From Saccostrea cucullata (lineage: Eukaryota), in NCBI RefSeq assembly GCF_032062105.1, contig NW_026938676.1:1-64000 (forward strand): a DNA stretch of 64,000 bases, given 5' to 3'. The notes beneath the pieces were generated by a model. It did no database searches and was not told the origin of the DNA. It saw only the letters and a program-made list of their open reading frames with translations. The translations under genes were made by a program, and so were the position numbers. This document shows positions 25,371-37,300 of the stretch, piece by piece. The first letter of the stretch is position 1. Each line of letters opens with the position of its first letter.

Positions 25371-28300
25371 TCAAAATTCTGCACATTTCTTTAACACATC
25401 TCCTTGAAGATACAACTGTTTTAAATTCTCGTCGATACTGTCAAACTTTTTGTAGAATTCGATCGTCTTCGCGTTCCACGATGGATCGTTCATAACACAC
25501 CATTCCATACGCCGAGCCCCGCTCTCAAGGGTAACCTGTAAGATATCACAATCAAATGGATAAATGTTAAAATTGACTGAAAACTGTTCTACCTGCTTTA
25601 TATACAATGCCTTTTAATTTCTTGATATGATTAACTCTCGAGAAATAATTAATGAAGTATGAGAACTTTTGCTCAGTAAGTATGAAATTACCCCAGAGGC
25701 AAAAAAGCGGGCAATTTAAAAATGAGAATTCCGGCGAAAGTCTATATTTTAAAAAGTGGGATTAGCCACCCTTTCCTCACCGCGTTCTATGAGCACGCTG
25801 TCAATACACGTACTAGTACATGTACACCAATCTAATTTACCTTTGCTATATATTTAAACACCGTCGTTCCGTATCCTTTAGATCTGTGTGCTGGTTTTAT
25901 ATAAATGTCTTCTAAGTATAAGATTTTCCCACAATCTCCATTAAATCCAAAAAAGTACGTGGCGAATCCAATCACTTCTTTACCTGCGGATCGATTCATA
26001 AAAAATAATAATAATTTCTCTAGTGGCACCTGTCTCAGGTATACAATATCAATACACTCATTTCGAATTTCATCTATGACTTTCAGTAGAATAACTGTAT
26101 TTTTTAATTGGAAATTTGTGACAAAGTTGGATCTTAAGGAAACTTCAAAGTAGACCATACTCTGATAAACTGTTATTTAATTTTTAGCATTTTAATATTC
26201 GTTGTTTTAATTTATTTATTCATAAATTATTAATGTATTAAATAATAAACTATTCTCTGAAATGTATGGATAACTGATTTTTATTGATTTTGAACGGTTA
26301 AACTTTAATATCAGCAACACAAAAATAAGAATTTTCTTTGATGTAGAAATCATATTTATGATTCATGAAAGTTATTGATGCTGTACTTGTTTGTAAATCA
26401 AAATTATTAGGAAAAAATTCCGTATGCAACATTTTTTTTTTTTTATTTCGAACGAAACTTACTGTCTTTCAATTCCACGACATGGGCCTCGAAAAGCTTA
26501 TCTTCTCCATCACGTTTAAACTCTGAAATAATTGAAATATAATAATATCAAAGTTTGATTCCTACCTGATTAGATCTTTCATTTAGGGAAAAGAAATTTA
26601 TCTTTCTGCATCAAAATTATAAGGAAATTATTACGATGTTACACATGTAGACAATGTATAGACATCTAGTTTATGTTATATAATGAGTCCGCACGGGGTT
26701 TAACGTATTTTAGATTTAAGTTTGTAAAGACTTGGACGTAAGGGTTAATGTACGAGTAGCGCTCCATTCCTTAAAAGTAATGGAGCCGAGGCCCCGAAGG
26801 GGCCGAGGCCCATTGCTTTTAAGGAATGGAGTGCTACGAGTATATTGACCCGCTTAAAATCCACCTTTACTGGGCCCCTTGTTTTTTATGAATGGAGACA
26901 GTGGTCATTCAAAGAATGATGTGAAGAATGGGTGACCTATTGTTTAAGTAATGGAGAGGTCATTTGCACCAACTCAACCATGAAAAACAGGAAGAGTTGG
27001 GTGACCTATTGTTAAAGTAATGGAGGGGTCATTTAAAACAAATCAACTATAAAAGTCTATACCTTACTGATTCTTTATCATATCAATATGGAAGCATTTA
27101 GCCAGTGATGATGAATTTTTTTTGACTCAGCAACATTACAAGGTTGATACTACAAACAGGGACTGATAATTTAGTATCTGATATACTAGGATTAGAAGAA
27201 GTTCAGCCCAATCTCAAAAAACCTGTTCAAAATGAGCCATATGCGCCTCAATGCTCCGATATTAGCGATGCAGATGACGATTTACTCGCTCTGACGGCAG
27301 AAAAGGTGGAAAAAGAATGCCGCTTTGGCGATCTAAAAACGGACAAGGAAATTTCAGAACTACAAATAAAACAGTTAAGTTTTCAAGTTTTACAGATGTA
27401 TATTTCTATTTTAAAAGCATGTTTTATAGAACAGGATAATTTACTATAAGGATCGAAGATGAAAACAAGATCCAATATCAAATTTAGAATGATGATTATT
27501 TTCTTACTCAAAATTATTTCATTTCAGGTTTGCACCCGCAACTAGATTGAAAATACGGTGGGCCGTCAGCACATTCAGAGAGTGGCAAAGATTTCGGAAT
27601 GAAATATCGAAAAGTCGATCGGATATTAGTCCCATTCTTGTTGATATTGATAAAATGACAATGGATGAGTTGAATTACACAGTGTCACGTTTTATATGTG
27701 AAGCCAAAAAAGTAGACGGATCGGAATACCCCCCAGAAACATTATTTCTTGTCAGCCATTAGTGTAAGATGTAGGCTGTTAAAAGCTCTGAGAGAATTAG
27801 TGGGTGCATTGAAGATACGTGTGTGTGTATTGTCTCTTGGCAAGTATGTCATCGTATAATATGCCATAGTTTCTTATATTAGTGATTTTGAAGCTGCTCA
27901 TCAAATATAGACAAAATTTTTAATTAATTGTGTCGTTTGGTCCAATGAACTCTACTCACGATACCAACCAATGTCGGACTCTAGATGTGCTAAGGACACC
28001 AAACGTAACAGGTCTTCTGAATTAAGTTTCTCTGAACACTTATCATCTCGAAGACGTATCACGTCTTCCTCATCCTTGCCAGATATTTCTAATCTGTCAG
28101 CCGAGATGGCCACTAACTTTGAGAACAGTCAATCAAAAATCCCATCATCCTCTCCTTTGACCCCAACATCTACAGTCTTAAGTTCATCACCTGACCCAAA
28201 CAAAAGTACTGGCTCTTCAACAGCTATAGTTGACTCCAACGGGGAGATACAAACATCTGCCATAAATGAACTAATTGTTAATGCCGTTCATAGTCAGGCT

Positions 28301-34300: not shown

Positions 34301-37300
34301 TTTTATCTAACTATAGACCTGTTTCATTGTTAAGCTGTGTCAGTAAAGTGATGGAGCGTATTGTATTTAAACACTTGTACAACTATTTTCACTCTAACAA
34401 TATTTTTTATAAATGCCAGGCTGGTTTCTTACCTGGTCACTCTACTGTATATCAGTTATTAGAAACATATGATAACATTGTTAGAAATATTGATGAAGGC
34501 AAATCCTGCTGTATGATTTTTTGTGACTTATCTAAGGCCTTTGACCGTGTATGGCACAAAGGACTCTTATTTAAATTAAAAATGTATGGTGTAAAGAAAG
34601 ATATGTATAGTTGGTTAAAAAGCTATTTAGAGAATAGAACGCAAAGAGTGATATACAAAAACCTGGTATCCCCTTCTGAATCCCTTTATGCGGGTGTTCC
34701 ACAAGGCTCTGTATTAGGTCCATTGTTATTTTTAATTTATGTGAACGATGTAGCTGACAAGATGTCAAGCTTTTGTAGACTTTTTGCTGATGATAACAGT
34801 TTGCAGTATGCATCTAAATGTGTCAAATCTATAGAAGGTCATCTGAATAATGATCTTTTATCTCTGGAAGAGTGGTCTAAAAAGTGGTTGCTAAAATTTA
34901 ATCCCTCTAAAACTAAGGTTGTATTTTTTAACACAAGAAAAAACAAAGAATTTCCAAAACTCCTTTTCCAGGATAGCCAATTAGAATATGTTCAAACTCA
35001 TAAGCATCTAGGGGTAACGTTTTCATACAACTTAAGTTGGTCATCTCACATTGAAATCTTGCTGTCTAATGCATACAAAAAATTAGGTCTTTTGAAAAAA
35101 CTTAAGTTTAAAATAAATCGAAAAAGCCTTTCACTTATGTATACTTCATTTATCCGTCCCCAACTTGAGTACGCTTCAGTTGTGTGGGGTGGTTGTCTAT
35201 CCATCGATTCTGAAAAATTAGAAAAATTGCAACTACACGCAGCTCGGATTGTTACTGGACTAACTATGATTGCCTCTAGAGACTCTTTGTATTTTGAAAC
35301 AGGCTGGGAACCACTCAGCGACAGACGTAAGATCCAAAGATTAAATATCATGTACAAAATTCACAATGATTTAGTACCAGATTACCTATCTGAGATTATA
35401 CCTGATATGCGATGTAATGCTTCTGCATATACAACAAGAAACTCACAAAATTATAGTATACCTGTATGTAAATTGCAAACCTACAAATCATCATTTGTAC
35501 CAACTGTAATAAATGAGTGGAAATCCTTACCGCTAAATACCAGACTTTCGAGCTCTTTGTCTGTTTTCAAAAGTAAAATTAAACAAAAAATAACAGAAGC
35601 TCCGCCATATTTTAATTTTGGTAAAAGACGCAACAATATACTGCATACACGGCTTCGGCACAATTGCGTGCTAAACGCTGATCTTTATAGATGTAATATA
35701 ATATCTAGTCCACTATGTTCCTGCGGTAAGGTAGAAAATACGCATCATTATTTTTTCTCGTGCCCTAACTACAACGAGGCCAGGAAAGAGTTTTTCGATA
35801 AGTTTTTGAGATTTAATAAAGTCCATATTGTTGACATTCAGACTTTACTTTGGGGGGATACATCACTCAGTATTGCTGAAAATGAATATCTATTTTCTAT
35901 AGTACATTCTTATATTCAGCATTCTGGTAGATTTAACTGATTGTACACATTTTTTAAAACTATTTGTATATACAATAATGTAGCAGTCTCTATATGTCTA
36001 CAATGAGAGTTTATTTAATTTACTTGTTATTTATTTTGTACAAACTGTTGAACACTTCTAATTCATCCTGTTATAATATCTCATGTAGGGAGAGGGCGAT
36101 TTAAGTTTTTAGAACTTGTGCCCAATCCCATTGTATATATTTTGTGCAATAAAATATGTTCAAACCAGAAACATTGTATAGTTTTGTGATCTGTTTACAG
36201 TTGTACATGGATACCCTTGGATATAACTACAAGTTCTTAACTGATGATGAGTTTTCTCAAATAAAAAACACCTTGGATAATGTTATGAAATCAAAGGCCA
36301 AAGATAGTCGGTGGCGCAAAAAAACAGGCTTTACCAATTACAGAGGACGAGGAAGATATATTAATTGTGGTCTAAAGGTATTCTAGGGGACACCGACCCT
36401 GAACAGCTTCTGTATACATTACTCTATCTAATTGGCCTTCATTTCGCTTTACGTGGGGGACAAGAGCATCGAAGTTTAAGAAGAGGAGACCGTTCACAAT
36501 ATTATCTGTTTCTGAGGACGCTCAGGGGAAATTTCTTAGTTATACGGAGGACACATCAAAGAGTAATCAAGGTGGATTAAAACATAGAAAAATTTCCAAA
36601 AAATCTGTCCAAGCATATGAAAATAAGCAAATGCCTAACAGATGTATAGTGAAATATTGTGAGAAATATATTAGTAGGTGTCCCGATGTAAAAGTGTGTG
36701 ACGCGTTTCATCTTCGCCCACTTGCAAAACCAACTGAGGAACAATGGTATTCTGTTCAGCCCATTGGTAGGCATAAACTTGCCAATGTTGTTTCTGATCT
36801 GTGCAAACAGGGAGGACTACATGGATTTAGAACAAACCACTCGTTACGCGCTTAAGCAGCAACTCAACTGTATCACGCTGGCGTGGATGAGCAGCTTATT
36901 TCGGAGGTAACTGGCCATAGATCGAATGCTATCCGGAACTACAAGCGAACAACCGCAGCACAAAAAAGGAATTTGAGTGAAATTCTCCAAGGACGTAAAG
37001 ACAGTGATATTGATATCAATAACAATAGCCACTGTGAATGTGTCAAGTCCGGATCCGATTTTCAAGTCTGTAAATATTTCATTTAATAAAAAGTGAAGTA
37101 ATTTTGCTTGAAATAAAAATTATCAAAAGTTATTGTGTTATACTAAATATAACAATGGTTGACCTACTTTCCAACGCTCCATTCCTTATAAATAATGGAG
37201 CGTTCAAACAAAAGAATGACGTCACAGGTGGATTTTAATTTATATTTCTAACGTACCTTCACACGTCAGTATTAATGCCGCCTGACGGCCCTCTTCTTCT

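Follow-up and report, generated by a model that had tools for sequence, protein, structure and literature searches.

A CryptonA element interrupted by a LINE

We analysed a window of 64,000 nucleotides from the forward strand of Saccostrea cucullata contig NW_026938676.1 (positions below are those of the window), which contains a mobile element encoding a tyrosine recombinase of its own. Because the predicted protein matches DUF3504, the element is classed from its sequence as a CryptonA, and we call its family A. It occupies 26738..37238 on the + strand, measures 2.07 kb without a nested long interspersed nuclear element (LINE) and has the ends GTAA...GGATTTTAA. The original prediction, made from the letters of the window, had placed a Crypton at 26733..37238. 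A Crypton is indeed present, its left end lies at 26738, and the 10.5-kb span is not Crypton throughout: it consists of the 2.07-kb element and an 8.4-kb LINE insertion. The LINE (27744..36175, + strand), with open reading frame (ORF) 1, an endonuclease and a reverse transcriptase, is flanked by an 11-bp target duplication, CCAGAAACATT, at 27733-27743 and 36165-36175, and lies outside the Crypton proper. The reverse transcriptase found inside the window belongs to the LINE, with its own target duplication, and not to the Crypton.

The window copy is broken by the LINE insertion, by frameshifts and by a premature stop, and is 97% identical to an uninterrupted copy, L037. Searching the genome with both element ends gave at least 7 other long left-part and at least 8 right-part matches, 94-100% identical, together with many short matches; 40 of 236 left and 40 of 164 right candidates were scored. 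Five uninterrupted family-A copies align across ~2.07 kb at 97%. Among 37 complete copies, 32 are 0.5-1.5 kb long and non-autonomous and 5 are ~2.07 kb long; non-autonomous derivatives outnumber coding copies in this family. Family A has no terminal inverted repeats (TIRs) and no long direct repeats.

Recombinase gene and protein

The 5' part of the recombinase gene (27088..27743, + strand) comprises predicted exon 1 (27088-27397), a GT-AG intron (27398-27527) predicted from sequence only, and the start of exon 2 with the QRICH1 domain. The 3' part (36176..37096, + strand) carries the DUF3504 catalytic domain and is broken in the window copy. The predicted intron is kept in 5 of 5 aligned copies. 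Copy L037 has an open frame of 388 residues with matches to DUF3504, QRICH1 and Phage_integrase (Pfam E values 3.7e-34, 9.9e-13 and 3e-7, respectively). Only two ORFs of at least 100 residues are present in the 2066-bp copy, and ORF and profile searches of this uninterrupted element detected no reverse transcriptase.

The catalytic residues R165, K200, H293, R296, H319 and Y327 are kept in 104-109 of 110 aligned homologues, and the named recombinase homologues come from molluscs and echinoderms. The protein was modelled from an alignment (pLDDT 96.5), the single-sequence version (pLDDT 36) being discarded. The first Foldseek matches of this model were QRICH1 (top) and Cre. A wider fold search ranked Cre (Z 18.5, root-mean-square deviation 2.9, 272 residues aligned) before an archaeal Xer (Z 16.6) and the integron integrase (Z 14.9, deviation 4.5, 248 aligned). 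The DUF3504 match, the catalytic residues and the modelled fold bear out the earlier proposal of a Crypton with a Cre-fold tyrosine recombinase. RNA depth was zero over the recombinase coding region in one raw RNA run; a second run, only guessed to be RNA, gave four low-depth contigs over this region and was not used as evidence of expression.

Ends of the element and insertion sites

We aligned 46 independent left junctions of family A, all chosen with an internal complementary region (ICR, described below) behind them, and 49 right junctions. On the left, the element starts with G45, T44, A45 and A44, and the host positions -4 to -1 are T31, T39, A40 and C28 (or T12, A6). On the right, the last four bases are T49, T48, A48 and then C40 or A8, that is TTAM in ~48 of the 49 junctions, after which the host sequence continues with no constant word. 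At both junctions the element's bases hardly vary and those of the host do, and the change falls at a single point. The host word before the insertion point of the window copy (26734..26737, + strand) is GGAC; averaged over the 46 left flanks it is TTAC-like and resembles the element's own last four bases.

Empty sites gave the same picture. Copy L037 lies in a high-copy repeat, whose empty members yield the joints 473>2541 and 468>2535 in several runs. The paralogous empty sites of L217, L225 and L241 fit exactly, and that of L046 has six extra bases. At the window locus itself, an element-free haplotype on contig C15506 breaks off exactly after 26737, and its right side differs. From these junction alignments and empty sites, the ends are 26738 and 37238, insertion takes place after a TTAM-like host word without target duplication, and the crossover separates the TTAM of the right end from the GT of the left end, directly after the right terminal arm AGGTGGATTTTAA (37226..37238, + strand). 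Family-A insertions are dispersed and single, at unrelated flanks, and form neither an attI platform nor a cassette array. On contig G000:C15506 (L130 / L032), the element-free haplotype is followed by a partial filled copy, and ~68 bp replace ~10 bp at the right; this arrangement is either a chimeric assembly or a local duplication.

A right end joined to a left end exactly at the predicted base was found in a dimer of family Q (L282, one genome-wide match), in L083 (family B), in L289 (D-type end) and twice in L153. These head-to-tail joints of sister families confirm the cut point and show that the right end is a good target. Family Q itself (L272-L290), non-autonomous and ~0.9 kb long, is very abundant, with 969 first-look candidates; 5 of its 17 right flanks start with GT, a hint of 2-bp core pairing that is not seen in family A. 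Two family-B copies stand tail to tail, ~430 bp apart (L089/L090, G000:C20375).

Left hairpin and internal complementary region

The left end of the element forms an imperfect hairpin (26738..26851, + strand), with a predicted folding energy of -45.1 kcal/mol for the top strand (z -11.3) and -37.2 kcal/mol for the bottom strand. Its stem contains two tandem G·A mismatches on the + strand, an outer one (26754..26755, partner 26838-26839) and an inner one (26788-26789, partner 26805-26806), and it is closed by a C(GAA)G loop of the DNA mini-hairpin type (26796..26798, + strand). Tandem sheared G·A pairs are stable. GNA and GNNA mini-hairpins, the motif class of this loop, have a much higher stability in DNA than in RNA and are found at the single-stranded origins of phages (PMC13037366).

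Directly behind the hairpin lies the ICR (26852..26866, + strand), which the original prediction had missed. Its segment TTAAAATCCACCT (26854-26866) is the exact reverse complement of the last 13 bases of the element, so that the ICR and the last bases of the hairpin mirror the junction of right and left ends. An ICR follows 27 of 30 left ends that were picked regardless of it. The terminal base and its ICR partner are C:G in 30 of the 37 complete copies, A:T in 5 and another combination in 2; C:G is found in non-autonomous and A:T in coding copies, which counts as one evolutionary change.

When the two ends are joined, the top strand is predicted to form one hairpin of ~140 nt. From its base, the modelled structure comprises the duplex of right terminal arm and ICR, a 2-nt bulge beside the crossover (26740..26741, + strand; 7 nt in the top core against 5 nt), a stem formed by the palindromic sites 1 and 2 described below, the two tandem G·A mismatches and the C(GAA)G loop.

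Some individual copies bear on this region. A 230-bp copy (L230/L260, G000:C8641) has both ends and sites 1-3 without an ICR; it either suffered a later deletion or moved without the ICR. In three single copies (left arm of L081, right arm of L051, and L189), one arm has come to match the other perfectly at the place of a tandem G·A mismatch; template switching in a folded strand would be expected to give such conversions. A family-Q hairpin stands alone and inverted inside a recombinase gene (L071:2265-2396 / L271) and ends exactly at the TTAA of the ICR, possibly owing to a cut on the ICR strand or to a chance deletion.

Conservation in related families

A protein search of the genome gave 178 matches. 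Sixty loci of relatives grouped into 19 clusters; 13 of these were analysed alongside family A and 6 were left out. Metagenome contigs provided 80 loci, from which five groups with both ends were analysed. Family P and the loci L071, L076, L116 and L121 stand outside the fits, their two ends not being fitted. The set of 19 families discussed here was chosen for showing the hairpin, and its families are related.

Across these 19 families, from the genome and other contig sets, the ICR co-varies with each family's own end. Families ending in TTAA, CTAA, ACAA, ATAA and GTAA each carry a matching ICR, and their recombinases are ~25-70% identical to the query. In an end-anchored test of 17 families, no more than 5 of 2000 shuffles matched the family's own end as well as the ICR did in 13; families F and W4 were borderline and M and J2 not significant. 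A G·T wobble breaks the exact match in M, W4 and J2.

The modelled junctions of the 19 families contain 36 tandem G·A mismatches and no tandem T·C (at least one tandem G·A in 16 families), and 33 G·T against 15 A·C. This bias marks one strand, since the other strand would read T·C and C·A. Fourteen of the 19 families have a loop of the form C(GNA)G or C(GNNA)G, and 15 of 19 have a 2-nt bulge at the junction; the hairpin tips of J, O and J2 are branched and poorly aligned. In families K, M, N and O the gene is encoded on the strand complementary to that of the hairpin, so the hairpin is no structure of the mRNA. A core of 7 nt, with a WTAH word after it, is conserved in families A-G. In 7 of 16 families, words of the family's own are found both in the stem and close to the right end, to a degree that exceeds any cross-family match.

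A further palindrome, TGACGTCA, lies near the right end (37217..37224, no strand assigned) and is kept with variants in families A-G, where it stands 12-14 bp before the right end; in a circle it would stand upstream of the gene. We take this word to be the CRE/ATF word.

Palindromic sites

The original prediction had interpreted three palindromic sites as a lox-like system. Site 1, CGCTCCATTCCTTAAAAGTAATGGAGC (26760..26786, + strand), its direct repeat site 3, CGCTCCATTCCTTATAAATAATGGAGCG (37175..37202, + strand), with the spacers reported for both, and the inverted, degenerate site 2 (26809..26834, - strand), which makes a hairpin around GGCCCCGAAGGGGCC (26790-26804), are present as described. 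The spacers of sites 1 and 3 differ at 2 of 10 letters. The window holds three occurrences each of the motif CCATT-N10-AATGG and of AAGTAATGGAG, where 0.08 and 0.05 would be expected, respectively; 0 of 100 shuffles reached either count. Site 3 is present in 35 of 37 complete copies and all three sites are kept in sister family E, in keeping with the proposal that the palindromes are conserved cis-elements of the family. Site 1 forms the 5' arm of the left hairpin stem, and site 2, the 3' arm, is simply its pairing partner. Site 3 is a subterminal palindrome that folds on itself (11-bp stem, both strands alike).

The two direct repeats of the half-site are also real and longer than the ~34 bp proposed: they measure 57 bp each, are 86% alike and lie at 26929-26985 and 26998-27054 (+ strand), upstream of the predicted start codon. 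They are absent from both non-autonomous copies checked and are thus dispensable in cis; they are possibly promoter or autoregulatory sites.

A model in which sites 1-3 are lox-like crossovers, giving excision through sites 1 and 3 and inversion through sites 2 and 3, can draw on sites that are real, conserved and palindromic and on a protein with the Cre fold. The original prediction had itself named element ends mapping elsewhere as an outcome that would refute it. The ends defined by aligned copies and empty loci map outside the palindromes in all aligned copies, 22 and 36 bp beyond sites 1 and 3, and the insertion targets carry no partner site of the Cre/lox kind. The products expected are a solo site between the outer ends (1x3) and a defined inverted joint (2x3). 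At up to 2 mismatches, the assembly, which may be incomplete, contained 0 solo and 0 inversion products; exact left ends numbered 44 there and exact right ends 59. The spacers differ between sites, and 9 of 16 families have no stem word of their own repeated at the right end beyond the cross-family level. The model is refuted as an account of the transposition site, and we give such crossovers hardly any credence. A repeated stem word, considered as a general rule, was also dropped, as it holds in 7 of 16 families only. The read joint 562>2508 is explained by site 3 of non-autonomous copies aligning to site 2, and was not used.

Sites 1 and 3 more likely serve as accessory sites without crossover, and all three are probably accessory binding sites. 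Binding of the putative recombinase to the palindromes is plausible, and they may have a minor resolving role, for example on circle dimers.

Proposed mechanism and alternatives

Structure and junctions lead us to favour, as rather probable, a mechanism in which the real recombination site is the folded top strand of the joined ends and integration occurs by single-strand exchange. A replication fork or cruciform extrusion would provide the folded strand, which would move as a single-stranded circle. The recombinase would bind the duplex of right end and ICR and a look-alike host word. It would then cut one strand after TTAM in each partner, through the usual chemistry of tyrosine recombinases (a 3'-phosphotyrosine and a free 5'-OH), and only these strands would be swapped. 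Such a one-strand swap predicts host TTAM joined to GT at the left and element TTAM joined to host sequence at the right, as observed. The bulge, by opposing 7 nt to 5 nt in the core, would bar a second strand exchange, and replication would resolve the junction, as for attC x attI and CTXphi. The G·A pairs and the loop would mark the strand used, and sites 1-3 would probably be accessory, placed so as to stay double-stranded after folding. The one-point, one-sided junction pattern is compatible with single-strand exchange but does not prove it.

Several observations weigh against this mechanism. The fold of the recombinase is closer to Cre than to the integron integrase, and the clean excision described for a Chlamydomonas Crypton (PMC9977147) is explained equally well by a two-strand route. 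Neither a circle nor a single-stranded form was seen: no head-to-tail joint of family A, whether circle or tandem, was found in the assembly, and no back-joint indicative of a circle occurs among the 15 listed of 146 read-level joints. The head-to-tail joints of sister families can just as well result from insertion next to a right end already in place. In family A, the first host base on the right does not match the ICR partner (G in 6 of 49), and three of the 30 left ends (L211, L214 and L230) lack an ICR. In a blind ICR test on 14 hairpins in 13 single loci, 4 were significant (L108, L132, L180 and L189) and 10 were not. By folding energy the top strand is preferred in some families only; in D and G the two strands are about equal or their order is reversed. 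Such energies are a weak strand test, as the parameters appear not to reward tandem G·A, and mismatch counts were used instead. Finally, the counts from the 19 families are not independent, because these families are related and hairpin-selected and because 6 of 19 sister clusters were left out.

The ICR might instead act only as a splint, holding the two ends in register so that a circle can form, as has been suggested for DIRS; the circle would then be double-stranded and would integrate by two-strand exchange through a mismatch-tolerant 7-bp core. The geometry of the ICR is the one by which DIRS ICRs are defined (PMC6681497), the one-sided microhomology is accommodated by Goodwin's circle model, the 7-nt core and WTAH word of families A-G are in line with it, and Starship circles with TTAC microhomology integrate by their own recombinase (preprint, bioRxiv 10.64898/2026.09.21.753150). 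A bulge 2-5 nt from the joint makes a poor splint, yet it is kept in 15 of 19 families, and the near-invariant element side with its single-point junction lacks the mixed cores that a heteroduplex would give. We consider a splint rather unlikely.

It is also conceivable that the fold is incidental and that everything acts as double-stranded DNA: proteins would bind hairpin arms, ICR and palindromes as inverted sites and thereby assemble a synaptic complex. Dimeric binders naturally give inverted sites, and each family's own words recur in stem and right end in 7 of 16 families. Such binding sites would not explain why tandem G·A outnumbers T·C by 36 to 0 on one strand, why 14 of 19 families have loops of the DNA mini-hairpin type or why complementarity is exact as far as the terminal base, which makes this explanation improbable. 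The hairpin might finally act as RNA, the element being a DIRS-like retroelement without reverse transcriptase that is copied in trans: RNA, too, forms stable tandem G·A and G·T/G·U pairs, and ICRs are known only from retroelements (PMC6681497). The 2066-bp element has no reverse transcriptase, the hairpin strand is antisense to the gene in 4 families, the GNA triloops are of the DNA type and the predicted intron is kept in all five aligned copies. We regard a role as RNA as very improbable.

Other features of the window

The LINE lies inside the recombinase gene and has a 951-residue open frame at 33085-35940. A 3.1-kb TIR element (29062-32172) is in turn nested in the LINE, between ORF1 and ORF2; its TIRs are 35 bp long (97%), and arrays of a 21-bp repeat lie near both of its ends. 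An exon of a GNAT acetyltransferase gene (25832-26176, - strand) lies ~560 bp from the left end of the Crypton.

Comparison with known systems

Animal Crypton families have been reported without terminal repeats, and the circle model of Crypton movement rests on analogy. The present analysis provides exact ends, the place of the cut, a rule for the target, a substrate obtainable as a synthetic oligonucleotide of ~140 nt and natural open-frame copies, and the proposed mechanism is therefore directly testable. If it is true, a eukaryotic tyrosine recombinase would act on folded single-stranded DNA with only a degenerate 4-bp target, which would be of interest as a tool for integrating single-stranded donors. 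Cryptons would moreover be linked to the DIRS ICR, and a hairpin followed by an ICR would be a simple rule for annotating the abundant non-autonomous copies in animal genomes.

In integron integrases, an IntI-specific insertion reads extrahelical bases. The attC/IntI and CTXphi attP/XerCD systems resemble family A in having an imperfect palindrome predicted to fold from one strand into a recombinase site, unpaired bases beside the cut, imperfections that select the strand and a site rebuilt from both ends of the unit; for family A these likenesses come from sequence and model. Single-strand exchange resolved by replication has been demonstrated for attC x attI (PMC8946536), and completion of a single-strand exchange by replication is stated for CTXphi (PMC3442271); for the Crypton such an exchange is proposed from its junctions and fold. 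Unlike attC, family A is eukaryotic, encodes its own recombinase, has no attI platform or cassette array, uses a degenerate 4-bp genomic target and carries tandem G·A pairs and GNA loops. There is about an even chance that the animal CryptonA is a eukaryotic counterpart of the integron cassette, with folded single-stranded circles, one exchange plus replication and a site recognised by its shape (through the bulge, the sheared G·A pairs and the GNA loop) in many sequences that are unrelated to each other, and with a hairpin and ICR end ancestral to the DIRS ICR.

CryptonA elements as described (PMC3212892; PMC13465315) share with family A a single DUF3504 tyrosine recombinase gene, the absence of reverse transcriptase, DDE enzyme and TIRs, many non-autonomous deletion derivatives and short microhomology instead of a target duplication. 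Family A differs from these descriptions by its exact ends, its terminal hairpin and an internal copy complementary to both ends. Kojima and Jurka (2011) report that animal Cryptons lack terminal repeats (PMC3212892), and the 2026 Glomhopper paper calls Crypton terminal repeats variable and assigns the ICR to DIRS (PMC13465315). Crypton relics of salmon and human have termini in common (PMC5753468). Chlamydomonas CryptonF carries CACCG at its end and inserts at CAYCG; the Cryptons of this alga use a donor word at one end, and their copy number rises (PMC9977147). The one-sided microhomology of family A is thus the known Crypton pattern, as in CryptonF. We found no description of the hairpin and ICR of Cryptons in the literature searched; Goodwin 2003, subscription reviews, supplements and Repbase/Dfam entries lay outside this search and may mention the hairpin. 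The element is a member of a known family with an end architecture that has apparently not been described.

DIRS elements likewise combine a tyrosine recombinase with an ICR, which lies inside the element and is complementary both to the first part of the left end and to the last part of the right end (PMC6681497). In contrast, the Crypton has neither reverse transcriptase nor RNase H and no inverted terminal repeats, and its ICR is continuous with the terminal hairpin, ~115 bp from the left end. With Cre/loxP it shares the protein fold and the catalytic residues, whereas its crossover lies outside the palindromes, its target has no matching site and no core identity is needed. Circles are also known from Starships (preprint, bioRxiv 10.64898/2026.09.21.753150). 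The bacterial elements called SEs are tyrosine-recombinase elements that copy out one strand as a circle (PMC9345347), and they differ from the Crypton in being bacterial and in having four genes.

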